A stretch of 64,000 bases of DNA. Origin: an uncultured Solirubrobacterales bacterium. GTDB lineage: Bacteria > Actinomycetota > Thermoleophilia > Solirubrobacterales > Solirubrobacteraceae. The notes under the pieces are model-generated. The model searched no databases, was not told the DNA's origin, and saw only the letters and a list, made by a program, of their open reading frames with translations. Position 1 is the first letter of the stretch. Each line of letters opens with the position of its first letter. Positions 45,748 to 64,000 of the stretch are shown one piece after another. Location of the stretch: the NCBI GenBank assembly GCA_963770615.1, contig CAVYQJ010000032.1, forward strand, positions 2,202-66,201, in the 5' to 3' direction. A program made the translations under genes and the position numbers.

Positions 45748-45754
45748 GCTTGGA

Positions 45755-45765: not shown

Positions 45766-45883
45766 TCCGTGGGGGGCGCTAAGAACGCGTTAAGAAGTAG
45801 AGCCCACAACCACATTCGCAGGTCAAAGTGTGCCCGTGCGGTCCATTGGACGGGTCATGGCCAAGCTCTAGCCTCAGCGCAAC

Positions 45884-47514: not shown

Positions 47515-48869
47515 TGGCCATCTCCGCGGGGGCAGGGTCGATGAACGGCGGGTGGCAGCCGGGGCTGTACGAATCGGCGACGTTCGACCGGAACGTGATC
47601 GCCGAGATTCAGCGCGCCGCGCGCGAGGGCATGTACGACATCCGCGGGTTCGGCGCCAAGCGGAAGGTTCCCCATTTCGACGATCTGCTGTTCCTCGGGG
47701 CGTCGGTCTCGCGGTACCCGCTCGAGGGGTATCGCGAGAAGTGCGCAACCGATGTCGTGATCGGAACGCGTTACGCGCGCGAGCCGGTGCGGCTCGACAT
47801 CCCGATCACGATCGCGGGGATGAGCTTCGGAGCGTTGTCCGGGCCCGCCAAGGAGGCCCTGGGGCGCGGCGCCACCGCGGTGGGGACCTCGACTACGACC
47901 GGCGACGGCGGGATGACACCGGAGGAGCGCGAGCACTCCTCCGTCCTGGTGTACCAGTTGCTGCCGTCGCGCTACGGCATGAATCCCGACGACCTGCGGC
48001 GCGCCGACGCGATCGAGGTCGTGATCGGCCAGGGGGCGAAGCCGGGCGGAGGCGGGATGCTGCTCGGACACAAGATTTCAGACCGGGTGGCCGAGATGCG
48101 GGATCTGCCGGTCGGGATCGATCAGCGAAGCGCGTGCCGGCACCCGGACTGGACCGGGCCGGACGACCTCGAGATCAAGATCGAGGAGCTGCGCGAGATC
48201 ACCGACTGGCGGATCCCGATCTACGTCAAGGTCGGCGCGTCGCGGACTTACTACGACGTCGCGCTCGCGGTCAAGGCCGGCGCGGATGCGGTCGTTCTGG
48301 ATGGGATGCAGGGCGGAACGGCCGCGACCCAGGACGTGTTCATCGAGCACGTCGGAATTCCCATCCTCGCGGCGATCCCGCAGGCGGTCGAATCGCTGAT
48401 GGAGCTCGACATGCATCGCAAGGTCCAGCTGATCGTGTCCGGAGGGATCCGGACGGGCGCGGACGTGGCCAAGGCGCTGGCGTTGGGTGCCGACGCGGTC
48501 TCGATCGGGGTGGCGGCACTGATCGCCTTAGGCGACAACGCTCCGGCCTTCGATTCGGAGTACCGAGCACTCGGGTCGGCCGCGGGTTATTACGACGATT
48601 ATCAAGCGGGCCTCGACCCCGCGGGCATCTCGACGCAGGACCCGGCGTTGGCTGCCCGTCTCGATCCGGTCGAGGGCGGCCGCCGGCTGGCCAATTATTT
48701 GCGGACTCTGACTCTGGAGGCCCAGACGCTCGCGCGGGCGTGCGGAAAGTCCCATCTGCACAACCTCGAGCCCGAGGACCTGGTGGCGCTGACGATCGAG
48801 TCGGCCGCGATGGCGCGGGTGCCGCTGGCCGGGACGTCCTGGATCCCCGGCCTGGTGGCGCCGGCTTAG
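47514..48869 (+). CDS. mgsC: FMN-binding glutamate synthase family protein, N-methylglutamate synthase subunit C (GlxD)
   Basis: IAGMSFGALS, TTGDGGM, GQGAKPGGGG, RHPDW..PDDL, DGMQGGT, SGGIR; TGATG overlaps. Confidence 0.9.
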   Translation: MAISAGAGSMNGGWQPGLYESATFDRNVIAEIQRAAREGMYDIRGFGAKRKVPHFDDLLFLGASVSRYPLEGYREKCATDVVIGTRYAREPVRLDIPITIAGMSFGALSGPAKEALGRGATAVGTSTTTGDGGMTPEEREHSSVLVYQLLPSRYGMNPDDLRRADAIEVVIGQGAKPGGGGMLLGHKISDRVAEMRDLPVGIDQRSACRHPDWTGPDDLEIKIEELREITDWRIPIYVKVGASRTYYDVALAVKAGADAVVLDGMQGGTAATQDVFIEHVGIPILAAIPQAVESLMELDMHRKVQLIVSGGIRTGADVAKALALGADAVSIGVAALIALGDNAPAFDSEYRALGSAAGYYDDYQAGLDPAGISTQDPALAARLDPVEGGRRLANYLRTLTLEAQTLARACGKSHLHNLEPEDLVALTIESAAMARVPLAGTSWIPGLVAPA

Positions 48870-48909: not shown

Positions 48910-48959
48910 TGAACTGAAGTAAGCTCATGCGCCGTGAGCGCCAAGCTTACTTCGGTTCA
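48910..48959. promoter_or_regulatory. Paired operator sites forming a 16-bp inverted repeat
   Basis: TGAACTGAAGTAAGCT ... AGCTTACTTCGGTTCA (15/16); each arm resembles GAACTGA-N2-TCAGTTC. Confidence 0.65.
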
Positions 48960-48988
48960 AATTGAGGGAGCACAAGGAGTTCTTAGTG

Positions 48989-50332
48989 ATGTCGGATTCA
49001 GATTCGACCGTTGACCTGCTCGTCTTCGGCGGTGGCATGGCTGGGATGAGCGCGGCGGCGCGCGCGTGCAGCGACGGGGCCAGCGTGGTGCTGGTGGAGA
49101 AAGGCCCGGCGATCGGCGGCTCAGCCGTTTACGCCGGCTTCATCTGGACGGCGCCGACGGTCGAGGTGATGCGAGAGGTCAACCCGGACGCCGATCCCGC
49201 GCTGTCGGCGAGAGTCGTCGAGCAGTACGGCGACGCGCTCGATTGGGTCCGCTCGCTCGACGTCGCGGTGGCCGACCCGGTGACGGTTCTCGGCTACGGC
49301 CGCGGCTCCGCGACCGACATGGCCAATTACCTGTTGACATGCGATCGACTGGTCCGTGAGCACGGCGAGGTCCTGGTGGGCTCCTCAGCGACAAGGCTCC
49401 TGGTCGAGGACGGAGCCGTCGTCGGCGCGGAGATCGAGACCGGCTCCGGCGAGCAACGGGTGATCCGGGCGCGCTCGACGCTGCTCGCCACCGGTGGCTT
49501 CGGCGGCGATCCCGCGCTTCGCGCCGAGCACATCGGCCCGCTCGCCGCCGATCTGCCGTTGCGGGCGAACACGCACAGCGTCGGCGACGGACTCAAGCTC
49601 GGCCTGTCGGCAGGAGCCGCCTTCGGGCCCCCGAACTCAGGCTTCTACGGCCATCTGATCCCATCGAAGGTCGCGTACAACAACCCTTACGAGTTCACCG
49701 ACCTCACCTTCTACCACTCCGAGCACGGCATCCTGCTCAACCTGGACGGTCGTCGCTTCTGCGACGAGACGATCGGCGATCACCTCAACACGCTGTACGT
49801 GCTGGACCAGCCTGAGGCGCGCGCACTGCTCGTGTACGACCAGCGCGTTCACGACGAGTGGGAGATGGCGCCCTACGTCGAGGGCGTCGAGCCACTCGAT
49901 AAGTTCCAGCTCGCCTACCGCCGCGGCGCCCGGGCGGCCGTAGCCGACGACATCGACGAGTTCGAGGCGCTTCCGGAGGAGTGGGGCTATCCGGGTCCGG
50001 CTTCTCGAGACACCCTGTACGAGTTCAACCGCCAGTGCGAGGCCGGGGACCCGACGCCGGGCCGCAAGCTCGACGCGGCGCCGCTCGTCACGCCCCCGTA
50101 CTACATCATCGAGGTGATCCCAGCGATCACGTTCACGTTCAGCGGGCTGAGGATCGACCCTCACGCCCGGGTCCTCGACGAAGCGGGGCAGGTGATCCCC
50201 GGGCTGCTCGCCGCGGGGGCTGACGGCGGCGGTGTGTTCCACCGGGCCTACGCCGGCGGGCTCGCGTGCGCGCTCGTGTTCGGGTTGCGGGCGGCCGCCA
50301 CCGCCACCGCGCAGCGCGCCGCCTCGGCCTAG
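48989..50332 (+). CDS. FAD-binding oxidoreductase (fumarate reductase/ketosteroid dehydrogenase flavoprotein family)
   Basis: GGGMAG, EKG..IGGSA, LATGGFGG, TFT.SGL, GL.AAG, GLACALVFG. Confidence 0.85.
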   Translation: MSDSDSTVDLLVFGGGMAGMSAAARACSDGASVVLVEKGPAIGGSAVYAGFIWTAPTVEVMREVNPDADPALSARVVEQYGDALDWVRSLDVAVADPVTVLGYGRGSATDMANYLLTCDRLVREHGEVLVGSSATRLLVEDGAVVGAEIETGSGEQRVIRARSTLLATGGFGGDPALRAEHIGPLAADLPLRANTHSVGDGLKLGLSAGAAFGPPNSGFYGHLIPSKVAYNNPYEFTDLTFYHSEHGILLNLDGRRFCDETIGDHLNTLYVLDQPEARALLVYDQRVHDEWEMAPYVEGVEPLDKFQLAYRRGARAAVADDIDEFEALPEEWGYPGPASRDTLYEFNRQCEAGDPTPGRKLDAAPLVTPPYYIIEVIPAITFTFSGLRIDPHARVLDEAGQVIPGLLAAGADGGGVFHRAYAGGLACALVFGLRAAATATAQRAASA

Positions 50333-50349
50333 GTCTCGCGGTACGCGCG

Positions 50350-51295
50350 GTGGTGACCGGGGTCACCGCCGACCCCGTCCGGGTCGGCATCGTGCTCCGC
50401 GAGCAGGACCTCGGTGCCTGGTCCGGTCGGTTCGGGGAGCTCGCCTCGCACGCGGTCGACGCCGGCATCGACCACCTGACCGTCGGCGATCACGTCAGCT
50501 TCGCCGACGGTCACGGCGCCGACGGCCTGATCCAGGCGACCGCGCTGCTGTCCGCGCATCCGCGTCTGTCCGTGCAGACCGGCGTGTACCTGATCGCGCT
50601 GCGTCACCCGGCGGTCGTCGCCCGCCAGCTCGCCACGATCGCGCTACTCGCTCCCGGACGGTTCACGTTCGGCGTCGGCGTCGGCGGCGACGATCCGAGC
50701 GAGCTCGAGTTGTGCGGGATCAACCCGCGCGAGCGCGGCGCCCGGACGACCGAGGCGCTCCTCTGCGTGCGGCTGTTCATGCGGGGAGAAGACGTCGAGT
50801 TTCGCGGGCGGTTCTTCGACCTCCGCGGAGCGATCCGTCCCGCGCCCTCGGTGCCGATTCCGATCCTCGTGGGGGGTCGGTCGGACGCCGCGCTCGTGCG
50901 CACCGGCCGGCTCGCCGACGGCTGGCTGGCGCTATGGGTCTCGCCGCGTCGCTTGCACGAGGCGGTCGACCGGATTGACGCGGTTGCCGCCGAGCAGGGA
51001 CGGAGCCAGGTTCGGTGGGAGCACGCGCTTCAGCTCTGGGCCGGCTTCGGCGCCTCCCGCGAGGTGGCGAGGGAGCGGGTCAGCCGTGTCATGGAAGCGG
51101 CGTACGCGCTTCCGTTCGACCGGTTCGAGCGGTATGTGCCCTGTGGTCCGCCCGAGGCGGTGGCGGAGGCGCTTGCCCCGTACCTCGAGGTGGGCATGCC
51201 GCCGGTTCAACTTCGTGTCCGAGGCGACGAGCCTCACGGACGCGATCGAGGCCGTAGCTGAAGTGAAGACGCTTCTGTCAACGGCACGAACTTAG
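50350..51295 (+). pseudogene. LLM class flavin/F420 oxidoreductase with one +1 frameshift near 51196
   Basis: GDHVSF, LRHPAVVARQLAT, GRFTFGVGVGG, GGRSDAA..R.GRLADGW; removing A51196 restores GCRRFNF..EVK to stop 51295; may be a sequencing error. Confidence 0.8.
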
Positions 51296-51379
51296 CCGTC
51301 GGGCGAGGGGTTTCGACGCCTTGGCGGCGCGGCCCCAGCTTGCCAGGGCACGCTTTTGCGCCCTAACGAACTATCAACC

Positions 51380-51427
51380 TTGACTTCCGGGCGAAGCATG
51401 TCTAGGATCCCGACCTGAGTTCAATTC
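51380..51427 (+). promoter_or_regulatory. Housekeeping promoter plus operator for ABC operon
   Basis: TTGACT-N17-TAGGAT (51380-51408), followed by GACCTGA-GT-TCAATTC (51412-51427). Confidence 0.75.
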
Positions 51428-51543
51428 ACCTCGAGGAGAGGGTGCTTCATGCGAGACGGTCCCGGCGCCGCGTTGGTGCGCGAATCAGATTGGTTTGAGT
51501 TCGGCGGAGCGCCTTCGACCCGCCCGACGAAGGGACGGGCCCG

Positions 51544-52662
51544 GTGGTAACCGTCAGCAAGCAGACCCCGGAGCGCTCGCGCCGGAAGTTCAGCACCGGC
51601 TTCGACCGCTTCAGCGGCCTCTACCTGGGGGCCCTGTTCATCATCGTGTTCGGGCTCTGGGTGCCCTCCCAGTTCCTGACGACCTCGACGCTGCACAGCG
51701 TTGCCGCGCAGCAGGCGGTGACGGGGATGATCGGCCTCGCCGTCCTGATCCCGCTCGCCGCCGGTCTGTACGACCTGTCGGTGGGAGCCACGGCGAACGT
51801 GTCCGGGATCTTCACGATCGTCCTGATGAACGGCAGCCATTGGGCGGTGGCTCCCCGCGATCATCGCCGGGATCGCGCTGGCCGTCGCGATCGGCTTCAC
51901 CAACGCGTTCATCGTGGTCAAGCTCGGCGTCAATTCGTTCATCGCGACGCTCGGCATGGGATCCGTCCTGGCGGCGCGTCGAGGTGATCATCTCGTCGAA
52001 CAGCCAGCCGATCCCGCCTACGTCGACGGCGTGGAACAACCTCACGCAGACCACGGTCGGCGGATTCCAGATCGTGGTGCTGTACCTGGTGATCCTCGCG
52101 TTCGTCCTGTGGTGGCTGACTGCACACACGCCGGTCGGGCGCTACCTGTACGCGATCGGTGGCAACCCCGACGCCGCCCGCCTATCCGGGCGTGCGCATC
52201 AACCGCTACACGACGTTCGCGCTCGTGACGTCCGCGACCATCGCCGGTTTCGCCGGCGTCATGTTCTCGTCGCTGAACGGTCCCTCGCTTGACTTCGGCT
52301 CGACGCTGCTGCTGCCGGCGTTCGCCGCCGCGTTCCTCGGTTCGACGCAGCTGATCCCCGGTCGTTTCAACGTGTGGGGGACGCTGCTGGCGATCTACGT
52401 GCTCGCCATCGGCGTCCAGGGGCTCCAGCTCGTCTCGGGCGCCAGCTGGCTGAGTGACATGTTCAACGGCGTGGCCCTGATCATCGCGGTCGCGCTCTCG
52501 ATCAAGCGCTCGCCGTCGGCGCTGGGACAGCGGCTGAGGGGCGCGTTCCGCCGCGGTTCGGGAGGCTCGGCGAGTGGTCCGGAACAGCCGGGCACGGGGG
52601 CGGATGCCTCTCTGGAAGAGGTCGCGGCCCCCGTCGGCTCCGAAGCCGCCAGACCTCACTGA
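51544..52662 (+). pseudogene. Sugar-type ABC permease (RbsC family) with three +1 frameshifts
   Basis: AGLYDLSVG, KLGVNSFIATLGM, GRYLYAIGGNPDAARLSG, AAAFLGST..PGRF, found in successive frames; extra bases near 51855, 51976 and 52189. Confidence 0.85.
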
Positions 52663-52757
52663 AAGCAGGACGACCTCTTATGAAACCGAGCGAAATGCCT
52701 GCTCAGATGGCGTCGCAACCAAATCGTGACTGTAGTCACATCCGAAAGGAGACACAC

Positions 52758-53952
52758 ATGACAAAACTCGATCGCCGGAGGGGAGGCCGGCCGCTTGGAT
52801 TCGTAGCGATCATCGGAACGCTGGTGCTCGCCCTCGCGGTCGCCGCCTGCGGCTCGTCCAGTTCCTCGACCACATCCAGTTCGTCGGCCGCTTCGTCAGG
52901 CTCGAGCGGCGGTAGTTCGACCGCCGCGTCTTCGGGCTCGTCGTCGACCGCTGCCGTCACCGCTGCGCTCGCCCCGTACAAGGCGACCGCCGACGACGAT
53001 CAGCGTCACCACCCCGCTGAACTCCGCCCCGCCCTCCGGCAAGACGATCGTGATGCTCGGGACGAACAATCCCTCGAACGTGATCATCCAGCAGGGCCTG
53101 CAGAAGCTCGCTCAGATGGCCCATTGGAACTATTCGCTGGTCAGTTACGACCCCGCCAACCCGGGGACGTTCACACAGGCGGAGACGACCGCGCTGGCGA
53201 AGCATCCCCAGTACCTCGTGGAAGCGGGGCTTCCCCTGACTGCCTCGCAGCTCGCGATGGCCAAGAGCGCAGGCGCGAAGTGGATCCTCGACTCGGTCTA
53301 TCCGGTCTCGGTAACAGACCCGGTCATCGGTCAGGTGGACGCATACGCCCAGGATGCCCTGATGGGGAAGATCGTGGCTGACTACTTCATCTCCGACTCG
53401 GGCGGCAAGGGCAACGCGGTGATCGAGCACGTGCCGGCCTATCCGATCCTCGATGGCTTCACGACGGGCTTCGCGAACGAGGTCAAAGCGCAGTGCCCGG
53501 GCTGCAAGACCTCGACGACCAACATCACGATTCCCGACCTCGTGGCCGGGAAGGTCGCGAGCGATTTGGTCTCGGCGCTCAGGTCGAACTCGTCCGCGAA
53601 CTATTTGGTGTTCGACGACGGTCCGTTCGCGGACGGCGTCACCTCCGCCCTCTCGGCCGCCGGCCTCAGCAGCAAGGTCAAGATCATCGGCGAAGCCGCC
53701 GATCAGGCCGGCATCGCGGCGCTGAAGACCGGCCAGGAAGCGGCTTGGACCGGGTTTGATCCTGGCTACCAGGCCTACGAGGACATGGACATCGCGTTCC
53801 GCGCCGCCGAGGGCATGGCGATCCCGGTCGCTCTGGAGGCGCAGCAGCCGACGCAGCTACTGACCAAGGACACGATCGGATCGACCACAAACTGGAGCGC
53901 TCCGACCGATGCCCAGGCGCAGTGGCTGAAGCTCTGGCACCTCAGCAGCTAG
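52758..53952 (+). pseudogene. Lipoprotein sugar-type ABC substrate-binding protein with one +1 frameshift near 52988
   Basis: AAAGGAG SD; lipobox LAVAAC plus Ser-rich linker; continues in frame of ORF 53050-53952. Confidence 0.82.
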
Positions 53953-53990
53953 TAGGCGGAATAACAGGTGACTCACTCCAGGAGGACACG

Positions 53991-55562
53991 ATGAGTGCTG
54001 TGCTCGAAGTTGAGGGCGTGTCGAAGACATTCACGCGCACCAAGGCGCTGGCAGGCGTCAGCATGACGATCGAGCCCGGCGAGGTTCACGCCCTCCTGGG
54101 GCAGAACGGATCGGGGAAGTCGACCCTGATCAAGATCCTCTCCGGATACCACGCGCCCGATCCGGGCGGTGGTATCCGGGTGGAGGGCAATGACCTGCCA
54201 CTCCAGTCACCCGTGCAGTCCTACCGGCTGGGATGCCGGTTCGTCCAACAGGACCTGGGGCTCGTCTCGACGTTGTCCGTCCTCGACAACATGGCCCTTG
54301 GGTCCGGCTTTCCCACGTCGTTCGGAACGATCAACGGAAAGGCGACCTACAAGCAGGCCAAGACCGACCTGGAGCGGCTCAGCCTCGACATCAACCCGAA
54401 GGCGCTCGTGGCCACGCTCAGCGCGTCGGAGCGGACCGGCGTGGCCATCGCCCGCGCTCTACGTGAAGACCCGGAGTACCCGGCGTGTCTGCTCGTCCTC
54501 GACGAGCCGACGGCGACGCTTCCCGTGGACGAGGTGGACAATCTGCTCGACCGGGTGAGCGCGATGGCCGCGACCGGCGTCGGAGTCCTCTACGTCACCC
54601 ATCACCTCGGCGAGGTCTTCCGGGTCGCCCACAAGGTCTCGGTGTTCCGAGACGGCAGGGTCGTGGGGGCCGGACCCGTCAAGGACTTCGACCACGGCGG
54701 CATCGTCGAGTTGCTCGCCGGCGAGGAGCTGCTCGCCGAGGAGACGGAGTCCCGGCGCGAGAAGGCCGGCAGGGCGGCGGCGCGCGAGCACGAGACCGTG
54801 TTCGAGGTCAAGGATCTACGCGCGGGAGCCCTCGCGGGCGTGTCCTTCAGCGTCGAGCGCGGCGAGATCGTCGGAATCGCAGGCCTCGCCGGTTCCGGCA
54901 GGGACAGCGTTCTGGGCGCGAGCTTCGGTGCGCTCCCCCGCGCCGACGGCGAGGTGATGCTCACGGGTCAGCCGCTTCCGGCCGGCCGGCCCGATGTCGC
55001 CATCGGCCGCGGAGTCGCATACCTGGCGCCCGACCGGAAGGTCGGCGGCGGCGTGATGACGATGAGCGCCCGCGAGAATCTCACCCTGCCGGACCTGAAG
55101 CCGTTCTGGAAGGGCGGGCTTCTGCGCCGACGGGCCGAGACGGCGAGGACCACGGAATGGTTCGAGCGGCTCTCGGTGAGACCGGCGACCGCCGTCAACG
55201 AGCCGCTCAGCATCTTCAGCGGCGGGAATCAGCAGAAGATCCTGTTCGGCAAGTGGCTGTCGCAGGAGCCGTCGGTATTCCTGCTCGACGAGCCGACCCA
55301 GGGCGTCGACGTCGGCGCCAAGGCCGACCTTCACCGCGAGCTCGTCACGGCTGCCCAGAACGGAGCCGCGGTAATCGTCAGCTCCAGTGACCTCGAGGAG
55401 CTCGCCGACCTGTGCGATCGTGTGCTCGTCATCGTCGACGGTCAAATCAGCGCACAGCTCGTGGGCGCCGAGTTGACCGAAGGAAACATCACACGCGGGT
55501 TCATGCCGATGTCCGCGGTGCCGGCCGAGGCCGCCGCCACGAACGGCGGCGAGGCACATTAG
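53991..55562 (+). CDS. Sugar ABC transporter ATP-binding protein (RbsA/MglA type)
   Basis: GQNGSGKST, LVLDEPT, FSGGNQQK, LLDEPTQGVDVGAK; AGGAGG SD. Confidence 0.95.
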   Translation: MSAVLEVEGVSKTFTRTKALAGVSMTIEPGEVHALLGQNGSGKSTLIKILSGYHAPDPGGGIRVEGNDLPLQSPVQSYRLGCRFVQQDLGLVSTLSVLDNMALGSGFPTSFGTINGKATYKQAKTDLERLSLDINPKALVATLSASERTGVAIARALREDPEYPACLLVLDEPTATLPVDEVDNLLDRVSAMAATGVGVLYVTHHLGEVFRVAHKVSVFRDGRVVGAGPVKDFDHGGIVELLAGEELLAEETESRREKAGRAAAREHETVFEVKDLRAGALAGVSFSVERGEIVGIAGLAGSGRDSVLGASFGALPRADGEVMLTGQPLPAGRPDVAIGRGVAYLAPDRKVGGGVMTMSARENLTLPDLKPFWKGGLLRRRAETARTTEWFERLSVRPATAVNEPLSIFSGGNQQKILFGKWLSQEPSVFLLDEPTQGVDVGAKADLHRELVTAAQNGAAVIVSSSDLEELADLCDRVLVIVDGQISAQLVGAELTEGNITRGFMPMSAVPAEAAATNGGEAH

Positions 55563-55568
55563 CGTCCG

Positions 55569-56300
55569 ATGGGCAAGGTCATCGGGCGGTTCGACCCGAC
55601 TCCGTCCCGGACGCCGGAGGAGTGCGAGCGCCACTACACGCATGTCCACGTTCGCATGGCCCAGGATCTCCTGAGGCCGATGCCTTCACTGCTCAGCTAC
55701 TACACCAATCGCGCTGTCGCGCAGGCGGATGTAAACGGGGGATGGAACCAACGGCCGCGCGCCTGGCGGTTCGTGGTGCTTCGCTTCACGCCCGGCGAGA
55801 CGCTCGCGTTCACGGCCGATCAGAACGAGATGGTGGCGCAAGATCACGTCAACTGTCTCTACCGGTTGCGCTCCTGCGAAGTTGAGGAGAGCGTGCTGCT
55901 CGACCGCGTCAACGGTCAGCTCGCGCTGACCAAGTTCATGCTCGAAGCCGATCGCGCGCCGGGTGTCGATGCCGACAGCGCGTGGAATGCCTTCACCTCG
56001 TTGGCGGATGCCGTTCGCGCTGCGGTAAACGGGGCGTTCGGCGTGCGGCGCCTGATCGTCAATCGCGTGCTGAACGAGGTGGAGTGCGAGCCGCTCGACG
56101 TCGAAGGCCAGCGGCCGATCGGGCTGCTCGAGGACTCCACGCGGGTCGGGTACGTCGAGGCGTACTTCGATCACGCCCGCTGGGGCGAGGAGGCCCTCGG
56201 CCCGCTGGTCGCGAGTGGCGCCCTGCGCGATCCCGCGCTTGTCGACGTCAACCTCTTGCGGGTCGAGGAGCAGGCCCCGCTTGACGCGACGGGGCACTAG
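55569..56300 (+). CDS. EthD-like tandem-domain protein
   Basis: EECERHY..VH motif in first half; degenerate second dimeric alpha/beta barrel. Confidence 0.65.
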   Translation: MGKVIGRFDPTPSRTPEECERHYTHVHVRMAQDLLRPMPSLLSYYTNRAVAQADVNGGWNQRPRAWRFVVLRFTPGETLAFTADQNEMVAQDHVNCLYRLRSCEVEESVLLDRVNGQLALTKFMLEADRAPGVDADSAWNAFTSLADAVRAAVNGAFGVRRLIVNRVLNEVECEPLDVEGQRPIGLLEDSTRVGYVEAYFDHARWGEEALGPLVASGALRDPALVDVNLLRVEEQAPLDATGH

Positions 56301-57055
56301 GTCGCGACGAAGCCACCGTCGATCGGAAGCGCGACGCCGGTGATGTAGGACGACTCGTCCGAGGCCAGGAACAGGACCGCCGCCGAGATCTCGTCGGGAC
56401 GACCGTCGCGGCCGAGCGGAATCCGCGCCTTCAACGCCTCGACCGCCGCGGGCGACGCGCTTTCGGTCATGCCCGTCACGACGAGGCCGGGGCAGATCGC
56501 GTTCACGCGGATGTTGTCCGGTCCGTACGAGACCGCGGCCCCTCGGGTCAACCCGAGAACGGCCGCTTTGCTCGCCTGGTACGGGATCGATCCGGAGAGG
56601 CCGACGAGCGCGGCGACCGACGCGATGTTGACGATCGAGCCCCCGCCATTTCTGGTCATGCCCGGGATGACGGCTCGCATACCCAGGAAAACGCCGCGTT
56701 GGTTGACGGCCGTCACCTTCGCCCACTCCGCGTCGTCCGCTTCGATGCCGACCGAGCGAACCTGGACGCCGGCGTTGTTGACCAGGATGGAGATCGGGCC
56801 GTGGGCCTGTTCCACAGCGGCGACGAGGTCGCGCCACGCGTCGGGATCGGTGACGTCGTGATCGTGGTAGGAGCTTCTCCCGCCGGCGTGTCGCAACTCG
56901 GCGGCGAGCCGCTCTCCGGCATCGGTCGCGATGTCGGCGACGGCGACGGTGGCGCCCTCGCGCGCGAGGAGCTGTGCGTGCGCTGCTCCCATGCCCTGGG
57001 CGGCTCCGGTGATCAGCGCGACCTTGCCGGCGACGCGGCCGTGGTCGTCGCTCAC
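56297..57055 (-). CDS. SDR family oxidoreductase (3-alpha,20-beta-HSD/cyclopentanol dehydrogenase-like)
   Basis: TGAAQGMG..HA, NNAG, YQASK, IRVNAICPG. Confidence 0.9.
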   Translation of the reverse strand: MSDDHGRVAGKVALITGAAQGMGAAHAQLLAREGATVAVADIATDAGERLAAELRHAGGRSSYHDHDVTDPDAWRDLVAAVEQAHGPISILVNNAGVQVRSVGIEADDAEWAKVTAVNQRGVFLGMRAVIPGMTRNGGGSIVNIASVAALVGLSGSIPYQASKAAVLGLTRGAAVSYGPDNIRVNAICPGLVVTGMTESASPAAVEALKARIPLGRDGRPDEISAAVLFLASDESSYITGVALPIDGGFVAT

Positions 57056-57112
57056 GATGGGACTTGCGCCCGCGCGGTCGCGTTCCTGTTCACGCCGTTT
57101 AGTGTACCATTC

Positions 57113-57128
57113 TAACTGAGTTCAGTTC
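57113..57128. promoter_or_regulatory. Operator TAACTGA-GT-TCAGTTC between divergent SDR and ADH
   Basis: 13/14 match to consensus; adjacent to TACCAT (+) and TACACT (-) -10-like hexamers at 57101-57110. Confidence 0.75.
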
Positions 57129-57169
57129 TGTTGATCGATCCTGGAGCGTCCGTCGTGAGCGCCACAACA

Positions 57170-58210
57170 ATGCGGGCCGTGCGTCTGACGCAATGGCAAT
57201 CGGACCCTGTCGTCTCCGACGTCCCGCGGCCGGAGCCGCGCGGATCGGAAGTGCTCGTCGAGGTCGGCGCAGCGGGACTGTGCCGATCGGACATTCACAT
57301 CATGAGCGCCCCGCCCGGCGCGTACCCCTACACGCTTCCGTTCACGCTCGGCCACGAGACCGCCGGACGGGTTGCCGTGCTCGGCCCGGGTGCGTCCGGC
57401 GTTGACGTGGGCGACGCCGTCGTCGTGTACAGCCGGTGGGGCTGCGGAACGTGTTGGCAGTGCGCCAACGGGCGCGACAACGCCTGCGCCCGCACGCAAT
57501 CCGGTCCTCACGGTGGAGGGCTCGGGCGCGACGGCGGGCTCGCGGAGTACCTCCTCGTCCCATCTGCGCATTACCTGGTGCCGGCACCGGGGCTCGATCC
57601 GGTCCCCGCCGCGCCGCTCACCGACGCCGCCCTTACCTCCTACCACGCGGCGAAGCTGTCGCTTGCCCAGCTGCGGCCCGGCAGCACGGCGCTCGTCCTG
57701 GGCGTGGGCGGGCTGGGGCACATGGCGGTCCAGGTCCTCAAGGCGATCAGTTCCGCGCGGATCGTCGCCGTCGATGTGCGCGACGCGGCGTTGGAGCTGG
57801 CGCGGACGGCCGGCGCCGACGCGGTCCTGCGGGCGGACGGCTTGACGCCGGACGACGTGCGCGCCGAGACCGGTCCCGACGGGGCGACCGTCGTGCTCGA
57901 CTTCGTCGGCAACAACGCGACGCTTGCGCTGGCCGCCGGATCGGTGGCCCAGGGTGGCGACCTGACGTTCGTCGGTCGTGGCGGCGGCGAGCTTCGCGTG
58001 GCGCCCGGCCTGATCCCTTACGAGTCAACGGTCCGGATGCCGACGTGGGGTACCGTGCCCGAGCTCGCCGAGGTAGTGGCGCTCGCCCGCTCCGGCGCGA
58101 TCCACTCCGAGGCGGAGGTGTACGGAATGGACGACGTTCTCAGCGCGTACGGAAAGCTTCGGCACGGCGACGTGCTCGGCCGAGCGGTCGTCGTCCCCGG
58201 TCGCGGTTAG
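57170..58210 (+). CDS. Zn-dependent NAD(P) alcohol dehydrogenase
   Basis: GLCRSD, GHE.AG, C..C..C...C structural Zn site, DAALTSY, GVGGLG. Confidence 0.92.
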   Translation: MRAVRLTQWQSDPVVSDVPRPEPRGSEVLVEVGAAGLCRSDIHIMSAPPGAYPYTLPFTLGHETAGRVAVLGPGASGVDVGDAVVVYSRWGCGTCWQCANGRDNACARTQSGPHGGGLGRDGGLAEYLLVPSAHYLVPAPGLDPVPAAPLTDAALTSYHAAKLSLAQLRPGSTALVLGVGGLGHMAVQVLKAISSARIVAVDVRDAALELARTAGADAVLRADGLTPDDVRAETGPDGATVVLDFVGNNATLALAAGSVAQGGDLTFVGRGGGELRVAPGLIPYESTVRMPTWGTVPELAEVVALARSGAIHSEAEVYGMDDVLSAYGKLRHGDVLGRAVVVPGRG

Positions 58211-58226
58211 GCGCCCGGCACGCGGA

Positions 58227-58256
58227 TTGAACTGACCTCACTTCACGTGATAGTGT
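58227..58256 (+). promoter_or_regulatory. Promoter with operator overlapping -35
   Basis: TTGAAC-N18-TAGTGT; GAACTGA-CC-TCACTTC at 58229-58244 (13/14). Confidence 0.7.
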
Positions 58257-58305
58257 CCGTCCGGTAGCGCCATTCGGCGGGACCGCGGAAGGAGAGTTGA
58301 GAGCG

Positions 58306-59142
58306 ATGGGACTCGTTGACGGGAAGGTCGCGCTGGTCACCGGCGCCGGCCGCGGACAGGGGCGCTCGCATGCGTTGCGGCTGGCGGCCGAGGGCGCGGA
58401 CGTGATCGCGGTCGACATCGCGGCGAACAGCGTCGAGACGATCTCTTACGCGTTGGCGAGCGAGGAGGATCTCGACTCGACCGTGAAGGAAATCGAGTCG
58501 ATGGATCGGCGGGCGGTCAAAGCCGTCGCCGACGTCCGGTCGCTGTCAGAGCTTCAGCAGGCCGCCGACACCGGCCTATCCGAGTTCGGGAAGATCGACA
58601 TCGTCTGCGCCAACGCCGGCATCGGCTCGTGGGCGGTCGCATGGGAGATGACCGCGCAGCAGTGGAAGGACATGATCGACATCAACCTGACGGGCGTCTT
58701 CAACACCGTCCGCGCGACGCTTCCCTCGATGGTCGAGCGCGGAGAGGGCGGGAGCATCGTGCTGACGAGCTCTACCGCCGGCCTGCGCGCCTACGCGAAC
58801 ACCGCGCACTACACGGCCGCCAAGCACGGCGTGATCGGGCTGATGAAGGTGCTCGCCCAGGAGGCCGGCCCCCACCGGATCCGCGTCAACGCCGTGTGCC
58901 CGACAACCGTCCGCACCCCGCTGGTCATCAACGACGCGACGTTCGAGCTGTTCGCTCCGCATCTCGAGAACCCCACCGAGGACGACGTGCGCGAGCCGTT
59001 CGAGTCGCTGAACATCCTTCCCGGGGTGGCCTGGGTCGAGCCCAGCGACGTGTCGGACGCCGTGTTATTCCTGTGCTCGGACGCCGCCAAGTTCATCACC
59101 GGGGTCGCGCTTCCGATCGACGCCGGCAACATCGTGAAGTAG
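58306..59142 (+). CDS. Mycofactocin-coupled SDR oxidoreductase (carveol dehydrogenase-like)
   Basis: TGAGRGQGRSHA.RLA.EGAD.IAVD, Y.LASEEDL insertion, CANAGI, HYTAAKHG, VCPT.V.TP. Confidence 0.85.
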   Translation: MGLVDGKVALVTGAGRGQGRSHALRLAAEGADVIAVDIAANSVETISYALASEEDLDSTVKEIESMDRRAVKAVADVRSLSELQQAADTGLSEFGKIDIVCANAGIGSWAVAWEMTAQQWKDMIDINLTGVFNTVRATLPSMVERGEGGSIVLTSSTAGLRAYANTAHYTAAKHGVIGLMKVLAQEAGPHRIRVNAVCPTTVRTPLVINDATFELFAPHLENPTEDDVREPFESLNILPGVAWVEPSDVSDAVLFLCSDAAKFITGVALPIDAGNIVK

Positions 59143-59165
59143 CCCGCAACATCGTGAAGTAGCCC
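59126..59165. repeat. Exact 20-bp tandem duplication spanning the SDR stop codon
   Basis: GCAACATCGTGAAGTAGCCC x2. Confidence 0.95.
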
Positions 59166-59181
59166 GGGGGCTGCGCGGACT

Positions 59182-59236
59182 GGGTCATAAGCGAGCACTC
59201 GACGCGACGCGCAGCTCGAGTGCTCGTTTGTGACCC
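59182..59236. terminator. Long hairpin between convergent genes
   Basis: 21-bp arms GGGTCATAAGCGAGCACTCGA / TCGAGTGCTCGTTTGTGACCC; both mismatches are G-U pairs on the + strand. Confidence 0.7.
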
Positions 59237-59358
59237 ATATTCGTGCGTGAATCGGCGTTCACGGCGAGGGGAGGTGCCGAGTGTCGGCTTATGACCCAGG
59301 GGTGTCGACTCTCGACCCGAGCAGGGTGTGTCGGCTCTTGCCCGCGGGGATGCCGGCC

Positions 59359-60507
59359 TCAGACCGTGAGCACGGTGCAGGCGCTCACGCCGGGGGCGCC
59401 GTAGACCTGCGTGAACCCGACCCGGCATTCCTTCGGGACCTGATGGTCGCCGGCCTCGCCCCGCAGCTGAAGCGCGATCTCGTGGACCTGCCGCAGGCCT
59501 GAGGCTCCGATCGGCTCGCCGCACGCGAGACAGCCGCCGTCGGTGTTGATCGGCAGCCGTCCGCCGATCTCGGTGGCGCCGCTCTGAATCAGCGTCTCCT
59601 GCTCGCCGTGCTCGCACAGTCCGGTCTCCGCGAGGTGCATGACCTCGGCCCCGGACTCCGTGTCCTGAATCTGTGCGACGTCGACGTCGCCGGGTCCGAT
59701 CCCGGCCTCCTCGAACGCGGCCGCGGCCGCCTCGGTCGTCGCCGATGGCCCCGACTCGATCGGGATCGATGGCGCGAACACCTCGAACGAGCCGAAGCGG
59801 CGAGTGCGGAACGCGACCGAGCGAAGGTACACCGGCGTGCGCGTCAGCTCTCGGATGCGATCGCCGCGGGCCAGCACGAGCGCCACCGCGCCCTCACCCG
59901 GCGAGCAGAACATGTACTGAGTCAGTGGGTTGTTGACCATCCGCGAGGACAGGATCTCGTCCTCGCTGAGCGGGGCTCGCCGCCACGCGTTCTCGTTGCG
60001 CGCGCCGTTGTCGAATGCCTTGGCTGCGACCTTGGCCAGGGTCGACTCGGAGATGCCGTGATCGGCCATGTAGCGCTGGATCTTCATCGCAAAGAACTGC
60101 GTGGTGAGCATCAGGCCGGTCTCGCCGTACCACGAGCCGATGCCCCAATCCTCGGGCAAAGGGTTGAATGCCCCCCGTGGGTGCTTGTCGAAGCCGACCA
60201 CGAGCGCGACCTCGGCCGCGCCGGAGACGAGCATCGCGTGAGCCGTCGTCAGCGCCGACCCGCCGGTGGCGCAGCCGTTCTTGACGTTGATGAACGGGAC
60301 GCCGGTCAACCCGAGCATCGAAACGGACGTGTCTGCATTGCCGGCGGCATCGGACCCGCCGGCGGCGAAGTCGATGTCCTTCCAGGCAATCCCAGCGCTC
60401 GCGAGCGCGCGACGGGCAGCGATCGCGCCCATCTCGAGTCCGGACACGCCGTCGTGGCGGCCGAACGTGTGGATGCCGAGGCCGACGATCGCGACGTCGT
60501 CGCTCAC
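59359..60507 (-). CDS. Thiolase-like protein (SCP2-thiolase superfamily) with non-canonical catalytic residues
   Basis: NVKNGCATG, CSPGEGA, AQIQDTESGAE, INTDGG..CGEPIGASG. Confidence 0.88.
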   Translation of the reverse strand: MSDDVAIVGLGIHTFGRHDGVSGLEMGAIAARRALASAGIAWKDIDFAAGGSDAAGNADTSVSMLGLTGVPFINVKNGCATGGSALTTAHAMLVSGAAEVALVVGFDKHPRGAFNPLPEDWGIGSWYGETGLMLTTQFFAMKIQRYMADHGISESTLAKVAAKAFDNGARNENAWRRAPLSEDEILSSRMVNNPLTQYMFCSPGEGAVALVLARGDRIRELTRTPVYLRSVAFRTRRFGSFEVFAPSIPIESGPSATTEAAAAAFEEAGIGPGDVDVAQIQDTESGAEVMHLAETGLCEHGEQETLIQSGATEIGGRLPINTDGGCLACGEPIGASGLRQVHEIALQLRGEAGDHQVPKECRVGFTQVYGAPGVSACTVLTV

Positions 60508-60944
60508 GGGTCAACCTCCTCCTGCGCGGGCCGGAACGCAAACGTGAGCTTGTCGCTCGCCCCGGGGACCGGGATCAGCGTCAACTCCATCTCCATCCCG
60601 ATTCGCAACCGCGCCGGATCGCTCTCGGTCAGCCGCGCCTCCACGCGGACCTCGCCCGGCAACTCGATGTAGCCGACGCCGTAGGGCTCGAACTCGGCCA
60701 CGCCGCCTTCGAGGTACGGTGGCGCCTTCGGCGCAAAGCACTGGATCGTCCACGTCCACAGCGCGCCGCGCGTGGCCAGCTCACGGGCGTGGACATCCTC
60801 GGAGGTACACCGCGGGCATGACCGCTGGCGCGGGAACGTCACCGTGCCGCACCGCTCACACTCCGAGCCGATCAGCCTGGGCTCGTCCTCGGTGCCCCCG
60901 ATCACATTCGGGTCGATCAGCTGTAGCTCGCGAGTGTCAGTCAT
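60504..60944 (-). CDS. DUF35/ChsH2-like Zn-ribbon OB-fold protein
   Basis: C..C...FP....CP.C, G.LWTWT, PYGVGYIELP, IGMEMEL; coupled to thiolase. Confidence 0.9.
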   Translation of the reverse strand: MTDTRELQLIDPNVIGGTEDEPRLIGSECERCGTVTFPRQRSCPRCTSEDVHARELATRGALWTWTIQCFAPKAPPYLEGGVAEFEPYGVGYIELPGEVRVEARLTESDPARLRIGMEMELTLIPVPGASDKLTFAFRPAQEEVDP

Positions 60945-61389
60945 CGGTCCGCGGGAACGCGAGCGCCTCGGTCCGCGGGAACGCGAGCGCGGAGGACCGC
61001 GCCACCATGTACCTGCGCATGCGTCCCGCCTGGTCTAGCTCCGCCACCGCGAGGAACGTGCCAATACGTTCGCCGTTGTCCCAGCGAGTCTCACCGAGAG
61101 CGAACTCGAGGTCACCGCTCACCCCAGTGTGCATCACATAGTGAGCCCACCCGCTTGTGTCACCCGCGTCGATGAACCCTCGCAATTCCTCACGCCCACC
61201 CAGGAACTGGCTGCTCTTGCGTGACTCGTCCGCAGCCCACTGGATCGAGAACTCCAGATCATCGGCTACGAGCTCGAGGGAGCTGTGTGGATCGGGGCCG
61301 TCGAGCAGTTCGAAGTACCGCTCGAAGAACGTCTTCGTACCCGCTTCGCTCGATGGCGGCACGGTTGGCCTTGCTTGACCTGAAGTCAT
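60937..61389 (-). CDS. SnoaL/NTF2-like protein
   Basis: FFERYFELLD, LVADD, GREELRGF; C-terminal ALAFPRT duplicated. Confidence 0.6.
   Translation of the reverse strand: MTSGQARPTVPPSSEAGTKTFFERYFELLDGPDPHSSLELVADDLEFSIQWAADESRKSSQFLGGREELRGFIDAGDTSGWAHYVMHTGVSGDLEFALGETRWDNGERIGTFLAVAELDQAGRMRRYMVARSSALAFPRTEALAFPRTDD
60944..60990. repeat. In-frame 24-bp tandem duplication at gene end
   Basis: TCGGTCCGCGGGAACGCGAGCGC x2, encoding ALAFPRT(E/D) twice. Confidence 0.92.
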
Positions 61390-61404
61390 TTCAACAAAAT
61401 CATA
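61377..61404 (-). promoter_or_regulatory. Internal promoter (-10 TATGAT) with operator over a probably leaderless start
   Basis: TT-GACCTGA-AG-TCATTTC-AA at 61375-61394 overlaps ATG 61389; TATGAT on - strand at 61399-61404. Confidence 0.65.
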
Positions 61405-61411
61405 CCCGACG

Positions 61412-62992
61412 CTAGGCGTTGACCGTCGGGCGTTCGAGAATCTGGGTCACCACGTCGCGCTTGACGACCTTCAGCGACGGCGTCCGGGGGAAGTCCTCGA
61501 ACACCTCGACGGACTCCGGCCAGGTGTATTTCGCAACTCCTTCTTGATCCAGGAACTGCTGCAGCTCCTCGAGCGTCGGCGCCGGCTTGCCCTCGACCGC
61601 GATGATCGCGGCACACGCGCGCTCGCCCAGTCGTTCGTCCGGGAGCGGCACGATCGCGACCTCGTGGACGTTCGGGTGGCGCAGAATCACGGGCTCGACT
61701 TCTGAAGGCACGATCGTGACGCCGCCGCGCCGGATGATGTCCTTGCTGCGGCCGACGTATACGAACTGGCCGTCTTCGTCGAGATAGCCGAGGTCGCCGG
61801 TCCGGTAGCCGCCCCACTCGGTGAGCGATTCGCGCGTCAAGTCGTCGTTCCCGAGGAAGCCGAGGAAGCGGCTCGGACCGTTGACGATGACCGAGCCGAC
61901 GGTGTTCGCCGGAACGGGCTCCCCGCTGTCATCGACGATCCGGATCTCGGTGCCGTCGTATGGGCGGCCCTCGGTCAGGTCGATCTTCGCTTCGGGGTCG
62001 TGAAGCCCGTGAGCGGCGTGTCCGGGCACCTCGGAGAGGCCGTAGTCGCCGAGCGGCGGAACTCCGAACGCCTCCCTCATCGCGACACGGCGCTCGCGCG
62101 TCAGCCCCGGCGCGGCGAGGACGCGCATCGACGGCAACTCGAGCCCGCTCTCCACCTTCGCGTCGATCAGGTCCGCCGAGTGCGTCGGCATCGACAGGAC
62201 GTACGTGCACTGATGCTCGTCGATCAGCCGCAGGGCATCCTCGGCTCGCCACCGGTTGACGAGCACGCCCGTGGCGCCGTTGAACAGGGGCGGGAAGTAA
62301 CCGAACACGAGGCCACCGACGAAGCCGAACTCGCACACGACGAGGTAGACGTCATCTCCGGTCAGCTCCCAACGCTTGCAGATGCCTTCGGTGGCGTAAC
62401 GCAGCGTGTTGTTCGAGTGCGAGATGCCCTTCGGGGTCGAAGTGGTCCCTGAGGAGTGCAGCACCATCGCCAGGTCGTCGGCGGCGCGCGGGACGTGCTC
62501 GCCGGGAGGGTCTGCGCCGGCCAGGCGGTCGACGAGGTCGGGCTCGATCGGGAGGAACAACGGAACCTGATCGGCGACCTGACGGCACTTGGCGAGCTCC
62601 TTGTCGCCGCCGAACCCGAGCAGTCCCTTGGCGCTCGTCTGCTCGATCAGCGCCGACAGCTGAGTCTCGTTGAACATCGGCGGGAGTGGCGCGATCACCA
62701 CGCCCCGGTGCATGCAGCCGAGCATCGCCACGGCGGCCTCGATCGAGTGGCGGCCGAGGAGGATCACGATGTCCCCGGGCTCGACGCCACCGTCGGCGAG
62801 CATGCTCGAAACGCCGGCGGCCGCCCGGCGGAGCTGATCGAACGTGAACACGCGGTCGTCGAGGATCAGCGCCGGCTTCTCCGGCGTCTCGGCCGCGCGA
62901 CTGGCGAAGTCGCTCCACAGGTCTCCCTCACGCCAGTACCCCTCTGCGTAGTAGCGATCGGCCTCGGGCTGGAACGTCAGGGTCGGCATCAA
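61412..62992 (-). CDS. AMP-binding acyl-CoA ligase (cyclohexanecarboxylate-CoA ligase-like)
   Basis: HSSGTTSTPKG, YGLSE, YRTGDLG, GRSKDII.RGG, PRTPSLK. Confidence 0.92.
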   Translation of the reverse strand: MMPTLTFQPEADRYYAEGYWREGDLWSDFASRAAETPEKPALILDDRVFTFDQLRRAAAGVSSMLADGGVEPGDIVILLGRHSIEAAVAMLGCMHRGVVIAPLPPMFNETQLSALIEQTSAKGLLGFGGDKELAKCRQVADQVPLFLPIEPDLVDRLAGADPPGEHVPRAADDLAMVLHSSGTTSTPKGISHSNNTLRYATEGICKRWELTGDDVYLVVCEFGFVGGLVFGYFPPLFNGATGVLVNRWRAEDALRLIDEHQCTYVLSMPTHSADLIDAKVESGLELPSMRVLAAPGLTRERRVAMREAFGVPPLGDYGLSEVPGHAAHGLHDPEAKIDLTEGRPYDGTEIRIVDDSGEPVPANTVGSVIVNGPSRFLGFLGNDDLTRESLTEWGGYRTGDLGYLDEDGQFVYVGRSKDIIRRGGVTIVPSEVEPVILRHPNVHEVAIVPLPDERLGERACAAIIAVEGKPAPTLEELQQFLDQEGVAKYTWPESVEVFEDFPRTPSLKVVKRDVVTQILERPTVNA

Positions 62993-63034
62993 CTTCCTCC
63001 GGTGTTCATGTTGTCGAATCGTGATCGGCGACGA

Positions 63035-63793
63035 TCACACACTTGCCATGCCACCGTCGACGCTCAGGACCGTCCCGGTGACGAAGCTGCTGCCCTGGCC
63101 GAGCAAGAACACGACGGCGTCGTCGAGCTCGCCGGTTCGACCGCCGCGCCCGAGTGGCGTCCGCGAGAGCAGAAAGTCGGGAAACTGCTCGGGGTCCTCG
63201 CCAAGGTCGTCTTTGTTCATCTCGGTGGCGAAGAAGCCCGGCGCGACCGCGTTCACGCGAATGCCATAACGGCCCCACTGGGACGCGAGCTCTCGCGTCA
63301 GGCCGATGATGCCCGCCTTCGAGGCAACGTAGGCCGCGTCCGGGATCTGACCGATCGAGCGCAGCCCCATGACCGACGCGACGTTGACGATCGATCGGCC
63401 GTGGCCGTTCCCGTTTCGCATCCGGTCCGCCGCCAGGCACGAGAGCGCGTACGGCGCGACGAGGTTGAGATCGAGCACGCGGGCGAACGTCTCCGCCGAG
63501 GTGCGAAGCGCAGGAGCTGTGGCAGCGGCGCCCGCGTTGTTGATGAGCCCGTCGAGCCGGCCGTACCGGTCCATGACGCCGTCGATCAGCCGCTGGCGAT
63601 CCGCCTCGTCCGTGACGTCGCAGGTGACGGGCTGGGCGCTCGGAATCTCCGTCGTGAGCGCGGCTAGGCGGTCGGTTCGCCGCGCGGCCAGCACGGGAAT
63701 GCCGCCGGCGTCGCCGACCGCCTTCGCGAGCTGGGCACCGAGTCCGGAGCTCGCTCCGGTGATGATCACGACATGTTCATCGAGCCGCTGCAT
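63035..63793 (-). CDS. SDR family oxidoreductase
   Basis: TGASSGLG, NNAG, YVASK, RVNAVAPGFF. Confidence 0.92.
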   Translation of the reverse strand: MQRLDEHVVIITGASSGLGAQLAKAVGDAGGIPVLAARRTDRLAALTTEIPSAQPVTCDVTDEADRQRLIDGVMDRYGRLDGLINNAGAAATAPALRTSAETFARVLDLNLVAPYALSCLAADRMRNGNGHGRSIVNVASVMGLRSIGQIPDAAYVASKAGIIGLTRELASQWGRYGIRVNAVAPGFFATEMNKDDLGEDPEQFPDFLLSRTPLGRGGRTGELDDAVVFLLGQGSSFVTGTVLSVDGGMASV

Positions 63794-63803
63794 TCGGTCC
63801 TTT

Positions 63804-63849
63804 AAGTTGAAGTCAGTTCAATTCTATCGAGGCGAGGACTGGAGCGCAA
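63804..63849 (-). promoter_or_regulatory. Promoter plus operator of the SDR-CoA ligase operon
   Basis: - strand TTGCGC(63844-49)-N17-TAGAAT(63821-26); operator AAGTTGA-AG-TCAGTTC at 63804-63819. Confidence 0.75.
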
Positions 63850-63956
63850 CCGCGCATCGCCAATAGACACAGGGGAACCGAGGGATTTGCGCCGATCGAC
63901 CGGTCGCGCCCGCACCCGCTGATAGAGTTGGGGTCACTTCAATGGAAAGAGGAACA

Positions 63957-64000
63957 GTGGCCAAGAACGCGCAAACCCGGGCGAAGCGGGAAGTAAAGCC
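63957..64000 (+). CDS. 5' end of a truncated divergent gene (possibly the island's regulator)
   Basis: AAAGAGGA SD plus GTG (MAKNAQTRAKREVK...); weak operator copy at 63925-63940; family cannot be seen. Confidence 0.4.
   Translation, partial: MAKNAQTRAKREVK

Follow-up and report, generated by a model that had tools for sequence, protein, structure and literature searches.

The window analyzed here, 64,000 nucleotides of DNA with a G+C content of ~70% from an uncultured Solirubrobacterales bacterium (contig CAVYQJ010000032.1, positions 2,202 to 66,201), carries in its right-hand part an island of predicted catabolic genes in which a short palindrome recurs from promoter to promoter. At its very end lie the first 14 codons of a regulator gene (63957..64000, + strand, GTG start), assigned to the TetR family from full-length contigs on which PF00440 and PF17932 are both found. 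The palindrome is very probably the operator of this TetR_C_24 repressor, which would control about ten transcription units, its own gene included, through eleven predicted sites; the predicted regulon is cut by the window end.

The earlier note on this DNA described eight copies of a 16-bp palindrome, and both their coordinates and match counts are borne out. A pattern scan allowing three mismatches returns the copies at 48911, 51412, 57113, 58229, 61377 and 63804, and those at 48943 and 63925 were read from the sequence, each matching at 10 of 14 positions. At the same threshold, the pattern as first given (GAACTGANNTCAGTTC) has seven matches in the 64-kb window versus 1.0 expected, a number reached by none of 100 shuffles. 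The palindrome stands, and its length does not: the flanks show that conservation extends over an 18-bp palindrome, TGAnnTGAnnTCAnnTCA, which consists of four TGA/TCA triplets at 5-bp spacing. The refined 18-mer TGANNTGANNTCANNTCA with up to two mismatches matches nine times (0.71 expected), always within 48910-63941; because of the internal periodicity, several of these matches are one site shifted by 5 bp. A position weight matrix (PWM) trained solely on sites from other genomes scores all eight sites at 13-31 bits and recovers two further sites past the window end. No PWM match was found at 1-48800 and none in coding DNA (random expectation 0.59), so the matrix does not hit coding DNA as often as promoters, the outcome that the earlier note had said would speak against its proposal. 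The claim of A/T-rich flanks likewise holds, with 50-64% A+T at positions -5 to -1 compared with a background of ~33%. At least one site is present in every intergenic region of the island that could contain a promoter. The gaps free of sites comprise a pair of convergent gene ends (~56300 and 59143-59358) and a single gap internal to an operon (62993-63034).

The leftmost predicted operator, TGAACTGAAGTAAGCTCA (48910..48927; one mismatch to the 18-mer, PWM score 23.4), lies ~68 bp upstream of the start of a FAD enzyme and is followed by a weak second site, CAAGCTTACTTCGGTTCA (48942..48959; PWM 15.1). The two are inverted duplicates with non-consensus bases in common (AAGTAAGCT), and together they form an inverted repeat (48910-48925 and 48944-48959) with 16-nt arms that are 94% complementary and 18 nt apart. 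The orthologous FAD-enzyme gene at locus L038 also has two adjoining sites, but 63 bp apart. We note that the 48910-48959 pair may be two operators only, or may also serve as a transcription-ending structure for the upstream glutamate-synthase-like gene. The operon behind the pair (48986..51261, + strand) was annotated with Pfam and NCBIfam. It encodes a TcuA/KstD-like FAD_binding_2 flavoenzyme, which starts at GTG 48986, and an F420-class luciferase-like oxidoreductase (50266-51261) whose best matches are F420-dependent LLM families (133 bits vs a cut-off of 167). Both proteins fall below all equivalog cut-offs.

The next predicted operator, CGACCTGAGTTCAATTCA (51411..51428; PWM 20.8), begins 3 bp past the -10 of a promoter-like site and precedes an ABC transporter operon (51449..56300, + strand; Pfam) with a permease, a Peripla_BP_4 binding protein, a double ATPase and a 243-residue protein without a Pfam match. 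Compared with contigs from three independent soil metagenome DNA runs, the window has one extra base each at 51849-51852, 51976, 52188-52191 and 52989. The frameshifts in the permease and binding-protein genes are therefore artefacts rather than pseudogenes, and 1-bp insertion errors are as expected for long-read assembly. Sister contig L001 shows similar gene fragmentation. Further along, CTAACTGAGTTCAGTTCT (57112..57129; 13 of 14 positions, PWM 22.2) is common to two divergent genes, encoding a short-chain dehydrogenase/reductase (SDR; 56297-57055, - strand) and a Zn-dependent alcohol dehydrogenase (57131-58210, + strand), and keeps this position in most orthologous loci mapped. A perfect match to the 18-mer, TGAACTGACCTCACTTCA (58228..58245; PWM 26.1), overlaps the -35-like TTGAAC at 58227, as the earlier note had it, upstream of the gene for a mycofactocin-coupled SDR (58306-59142, + strand; TIGR03971, 389.5 bits vs a cut-off of 300).

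The second site without mismatches, TGACCTGAAGTCATTTCA (61376..61393; PWM 29.4), is situated between the stop codon of an acyl-CoA ligase gene and an operon for a 141-residue protein, a DUF35 protein and a thiolase-like lipid-transfer protein (61362 to 59359, - strand), and it is kept between the same orthologs in most loci mapped. The 141-residue protein looks NTF2-like by eye and has no Pfam match. The highest-scoring site, TAAGTTGAAGTCAGTTCA (63803..63820; PWM 31.1), abuts the -10 TAGAAT (- strand) of the SDR and acyl-CoA ligase operon (63793 to 61412, - strand; SDR at 63035-63793). Finally, AGAGTTGGGGTCACTTCA (63924..63941; PWM 19.3) overlaps the -10 (TAGAGT) of the regulator's own promoter. 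Inspection of proteins and Pfam matches revealed no other DNA-binding gene in the island; the 243- and 141-residue proteins, considered as alternative regulators, show no helix-turn-helix on inspection. Upstream of 48.9 kb the genes form an unrelated set (glutamine-synthetase-like, a PucR/GAF regulator, an amino-acid permease and a three-gene glutamate-synthase-like set), which makes the left boundary of the regulon sharp.

Eight soil-metagenome contigs encode a protein identical to that of the SDR gene at 63035-63793. Six of these were examined; identity to the window is 99.2-99.9% in the five that overlap it (99.2-99.6% in L001-L004). They supply the sequence beyond position 64000 that the earlier note had recommended obtaining, and the truncated gene at 63957, proposed there as the candidate regulator, proves to encode a TetR-family protein: on the near-identical contigs it is complete, and its 238-residue product has TetR_N and TetR_C_24 domains. 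The complete genes of L001-L005 all encode these two domains, as do the 120 homologs listed. In an alignment of the intergenic region from 15 genomes, the GTG at 63957 and its ribosome-binding site are conserved, and an upstream ATG is not.

The AlphaFold2 model of a 91%-identical ortholog (pLDDT 84) comprises 10 helices. Its best matches in the PDB are all TetR-family proteins, with target-normalized TM-scores of ~0.6-0.8, the closest being DarR, PfmR, 3dcf, AibR with isovaleryl-CoA, KstR2, BkaR and FadR with acyl-CoA. By sequence, the nearest solved relatives are 3dcf, PfmR, DarR, FadR and KstR2. Domain content and these matches point to membership in the TetR_C_24 subgroup together with DarR, PfmR, AibR, KstR2, BkaR and FadR. 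The protein misses the NCBIfam equivalog cut-offs by a wide span: 29.1 vs 224.9 bits for MftR, 34.1 vs 150 for ScbR, 39.8 vs 250 for SACE_7040, and 25.4 vs 280 for KstR (NF033703). Automatic annotation at JGI labels many of the orthologs 'cholesterol catabolism regulator'.

Conservation upstream of orthologous genes was tested with one genome per species, in 79 loci of 69 genomes whose regulator homologs are 55-95% identical, and the motif accompanies the regulator homologs throughout these 69 genomes. Nearly all the loci are from Solirubrobacterales or Gaiellales of soil metagenomes; one comes from a cultured organism, Solirubrobacter soli DSM 22325. Their 1.5 Mb of sequence contain 614 raw matches, or 514 sites after merging of shifted copies, and 462 of the 514 fall in DNA called noncoding by a crude gene mask, a density 21-fold that of coding DNA. 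Short intergenic segments hold 264 sites vs 2.0 expected after composition-preserving shuffling of each segment. A site is present within 300 bp upstream of the TetR gene in 66 of the 79 loci. Where gene order is rearranged, the sites still lie beside the orthologous genes; examples are L035, the Gaiellales locus L037, and L052 of S. soli DSM 22325. Within the SDR-TetR intergenic region of 15 genomes, the conserved elements are two operators, the -35 and -10 boxes and the ribosome-binding sites only, and the ~70 bp between the conserved blocks are not conserved. The exact consensus TGAACTGANNTCAGTTCA also has at least 120 matches in metagenome contigs, nearly all of those listed being in DNA of 30-60% G+C. 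None of the listed matches comes with a TetR homolog, and none of the seven listed high-G+C matches has a second site. These are chance matches in AT-richer DNA and therefore neither support nor weaken the association with TetR.

With respect to promoters, the predicted operators are located 18-70 bp upstream of start codons. A consensus promoter scan found the TTGACT-N17-TAGGAT promoter that had been claimed at 51380-51408. The second claimed promoter, TTGCGC-N17-TAGAAT at 63849-63821, is present in the sequence and falls short of the scan threshold; its -35, its -10 and the operator are conserved blocks of the intergenic region in 15 genomes. At each promoter that is recognizable the operator overlaps it, starting directly after TAGGAT at 51403, abutting TAGAAT at 63821 (- strand), and covering part of TAGAGT at the regulator promoter and of the TTGAAC -35 at 58227. 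Because the sites overlap conserved -10 and +1 regions, we infer from their position repression by promoter occlusion. The site at 63924 has a degenerate left half which the 15-genome alignment shows to be conserved in its degenerate form, and it therefore fits weaker, leaky autoregulation.

The near-identical contigs extend the predicted regulon beyond the window. Past the regulator follow five more genes, namely a CurA-like reductase, another acyl-CoA ligase, another thiolase/DUF35 pair and a divergent aldehyde dehydrogenase, with two more predicted operator sites in the divergent gap before the last. The earlier count of at least six transcription units thus stands, and the extent given with it, a 15-kb island, was too small, since two sites and ~5 kb of genes follow position 64000. 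A second TetR gene, whose product is 55-58% identical to the first, is found ~10 kb past it in most related genomes, often on the same contig; in this organism it should lie just past the end of L002. The recognition helix GSTALYHYFESKLHCL and the basic N-terminal SSRSKR arm of this paralog are identical to those of the first TetR. Its neighborhood carries the same motif and encodes a P450, a full-length KstD-like flavoenzyme, a SnoaL-like protein, alpha/beta hydrolases, an acyl-CoA ligase and SDRs. The earlier note had postulated one repressor, TetR-like by geometry. The type was right, and the claim of a single repressor is uncertain because the paralog shares both recognition helix and motif.

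As a separate observation, strains that are 99% identical in the island diverge past the aldehyde dehydrogenase gene (positions 1-3100 of L001 and L003 vs 1-2900 of L002). L001 and L003 have hydantoinase-A-type and SDR genes there, and L001 also has an EthD-like gene (the calls for L003 differ). L002 has genes for an acyl-CoA ligase, a NIPSNAP protein and an SDR, an arrangement that is shared with most related genomes and continues toward the paralogous TetR.

The mechanism we propose is as follows. Bound to the 18-bp TGAnnTGAnnTCAnnTCA over the -35, the -10 or the transcription start, the repressor would block RNA polymerase, and it would do so at about ten transcription units spread over at least 20 kb, from 48.9 kb to ~5 kb past the window end, the regulator gene included. 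Triplets 1 and 3, like triplets 2 and 4, make up identical TGA-N7-TCA repeats; the half-site centers of each lie 10 bp from one another, and one repeat is shifted by 5 bp against the other. By analogy with relatives, each site might be bound by two dimers, one per overlapping repeat and on opposite faces of the DNA, a proposal to which we give an even chance; a single dimer reading 8-bp half-sites could serve instead. Release would be brought about by a CoA thioester of the pathway. Such an ester is the most likely inducer, a choice we favor slightly, because several relatives are released by CoA thioesters and the regulon encodes three acyl-CoA ligases. The paralogous repressor, with its identical recognition helix, would probably share the sites.

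The genes under predicted control encode an ABC importer, three acyl-CoA ligases, two DUF35/thiolase-like pairs, several SDRs (one of them mycofactocin-coupled), Zn- and CurA-type reductases, an F420-class oxidoreductase, a KstD/TcuA-like flavoenzyme and an aldehyde dehydrogenase. The enzyme set also includes proteins resembling cyclohexanecarboxylate ligase and 4-hydroxycyclohexanecarboxylate dehydrogenase, and BbsAB-like thiolase/DUF35 pairs. These last proteins, the F420-type oxidoreductase and the KstD/TcuA-like desaturase all score below equivalog cut-offs, unlike the mycofactocin-coupled SDR. With low confidence, the set suggests catabolism of an acid or alcohol that is alicyclic or resembles a terpenoid or steroid, by a pathway in which the organism may use both mycofactocin and F420 cofactors.

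Several points weigh against assigning the palindrome to the 63957 repressor in the manner proposed. No fixed register of the operator relative to -10 or -35 hexamers was found across all loci: among the oriented sites, ~28% themselves provide a TTGMNN hexamer at the left end and ~10% have TANNNT at -5, and the operator position differs between promoters. The promoter scan, which is of the E. coli type, confirms the promoter at 51380 only; its match at 61375 (+ strand) was discarded as merely the operator's own TTGACC. Metatranscriptomes contain only short, low-depth contigs of related populations, too fragmentary to inform on start sites or induction. The comparison loci were all selected for containing TetR, and the regulator-free sequence tested is the other 48.8 kb of the window. 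The occupant of each site is indistinguishable because the recognition helices of the two paralogs are identical. The class of effector is uncertain as well, since DarR, the closest structural neighbor, responds to cyclic nucleotides.

The alternative that fares best is that the sites of the window are bound mainly or only by the paralogous TetR (55% identical, ~10 kb past the window end) or by heterodimers, leaving the 63957 gene in control of a subset. The presence of the paralog in most related genomes, often on the same contig, its identical recognition helix and the recurrence of the motif in its neighborhood all agree with this arrangement. Yet the 63957 gene has conserved operators at its own promoter and at that of the divergent operon, the loci examined with one homolog within 20 kb still have several sites, and two sub-classes of site sequence are not apparent. 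We consider the alternative possible and the less probable account. A related and more speculative idea, which we regard as unlikely on present evidence, is that at least two paralogous TetR proteins with identical helices and different ligand domains share the four-triplet operator, with two dimers per site. If true, the shared operator would combine two metabolite signals in the control of a catabolic supercluster longer than 35 kb, spanning P450, KstD-like, NTF2/SnoaL-like, DUF35-thiolase, mycofactocin-linked and F420-linked enzymes. In Thermoleophilia, the supercluster would then encode an undescribed pathway acting on a soil compound that is alicyclic or resembles a terpenoid or steroid.

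It is very unlikely that the motif is the site of an unrelated and unlinked regulator, for example of the CRP/FNR or GntR type, with the TetR gene a mere neighbor. TGA...TCA cores do occur in the sites of several regulator families, but the spacings TGA-N7-TCA and TGA-N2-TCA do not fit the CRP core, TGTGA-N6-TCACA. Moreover, the TetR homolog is the constant neighbor over rearranged loci, with the site at its own promoter in 66 of 79, and the remaining 48.8 kb of the window, being free of sites, speak against a global regulator. Still more remote is a nucleic-acid structure (RNA hairpin, attenuator or terminator) or a REP/MITE-like dispersed repeat: the element is palindromic and repeated, and the 48910/48944 pair is a 16-nt inverted repeat, but base identity is conserved in the four triplets while the intervening positions vary and are less complementary than chance (positions 4/15, 5/14 and 9/10 in 18-24% of 446 distinct sites vs 30-32% expected), the 2-nt central gap is too small for a loop, the terminator scan called none of the copies, and the flanks are not conserved as in a mobile repeat. 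On the missing covariation and the absence of a terminator call, the hairpin, attenuator or terminator was rejected, and conserved base identity in the triplets, with no covariation at the unspecified positions, is the signature of a protein-binding site.

Other features of the window lie apart from the predicted operators. A second, unrelated TetR gene (TetR_N and TetR_C_7; 20208-20828, + strand) is divergent from an MFS transporter gene (18554-20128, - strand), and the two resemble a typical pair of efflux pump and repressor. The weak PWM match at 20192, in the gap between them, has four mismatches and was set aside as outside the regulon. The genes at 38499-48869, which also include a cNMP/CBS/DUF294 nucleotidyltransferase, look like a cluster for amine or amide utilization. 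The three-gene set of this cluster (GATase_6, GXGXG and Glu_synthase) has domains resembling N-methylglutamate synthase subunits. Usp genes occur at 21378-21920 and 41767-42264.

Inside the island, a 20-nt tandem duplication (two copies of GCC[G/C]GCAACATCGTGAAGTA) extends across the stop codon of the mycofactocin-type SDR gene at 59122-59161. On contig L003 the genes past 59161 are offset by 20 bp relative to L001 and L002, and its alignment has 26 gaps vs 4-6 in the others; L003 may lack one 20-nt copy as a strain polymorphism. Close by, the 216 bp that separate the convergent SDR and thiolase genes contain, at 59181-59237 and 59278-59299, an inverted repeat with 22-nt arms (91% complementary) together with a third related copy. 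This probably serves as a terminator hairpin in both directions; it lacks a T-run, and the terminator scan did not call it.

Actinobacteria of the Thermoleophilia (Solirubrobacterales and Gaiellales) abound in soil, yet hardly any experimental genetics exists for them. What is gained for them here is a well-defined predicted operator, the family of its regulator and a regulon conserved in 69 genomes. The motif shows which genes of a large catabolic cluster belong together, and the repressor and operator form a possible biosensor scaffold. The system is also a test case for paralogous TetR proteins that share or split one operator. The predictions are directly testable because the cultured S. 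soli DSM 22325 carries the system.

Literature searches on the regulator or the motif found nothing. Like KstR and KstR2 of Mycobacterium and Rhodococcus, the system appears to be an autoregulated TetR protein with a short palindromic box at many promoters of clustered lipid or alicyclic catabolism. The KstR2 box is the 14-bp AnCAAGnnCTTGnT, which in this form has three matches with one mismatch in the window (3121, 21916 and 55929), none in an island promoter. The KstR box TnnAACnnGTTnnA, also 14 bp (PMC1995591), has no match in the window. The earlier statement that the motif differs from both boxes is therefore correct, with neither present in any island promoter. At the promoter of kstR itself, the KstR box overlaps the putative -10 (PMC1995591). 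The systems differ in that the boxes have 14 bp there and 18 bp in four triplets here, in lineage (Thermoleophilia here), and in genes that do not obviously match the steroid ring-degradation set. KstR2 (Rv3557c) is matched at E = 1e-8 and ~24% identity (4w97/4w1u) and ranks below 3dcf, PfmR and DarR. Judged from these scores, the regulator is a homolog of KstR2 rather than an ortholog.

The FadR proteins of Bacillus subtilis and B. halodurans, structural neighbors of the regulator, offer a parallel in operator design, with four TGA-containing units, two direct and two inverted. In B. halodurans, four ATGA(A/G)T units make up two overlapping inverted repeats, each binding one dimer, and the resulting dimer of dimers is released by acyl-CoA (PMC5397183). 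The repeat offset is 4 bp there vs 5 bp here, the identity is ~22%, and the FadR regulon is fatty-acid beta-oxidation. DarR of Mycobacterium and Rhodococcus, the closest structural match and itself of the TetR_C_24 type, is a repressor that occupies overlapping palindromes as a dimer of dimers (PMC10636190). It differs in being modulated by c-di-AMP and cAMP and in its small regulon; its operator, ATACT-N4-AGTAT (PMC10636190), has no match with up to one mismatch in the window.

BkaR, AibR and PfmR are similar in being autoregulated TetR repressors of CoA-linked catabolic or biosynthetic operons, AibR binding isovaleryl-CoA according to PDB titles. BkaR (Rv2506) is autoregulated, with two palindromes in a divergent intergenic region (PMC3920632); its box, GTTAnTn4AnTAAC, differs from the motif and is bound by a single dimer. 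All three have smaller regulons and identities of 21-29%. The MftR box, T-N2-GGCA-N5-TGCC-N2-A, is unlike the motif described here. As far as sequence comparison can tell, the system works like KstR/KstR2 or FadR and belongs to none of those orthologous groups. In concept it is one more KstR/FadR-style regulon, an uncharacterized example that entails no new mechanism.

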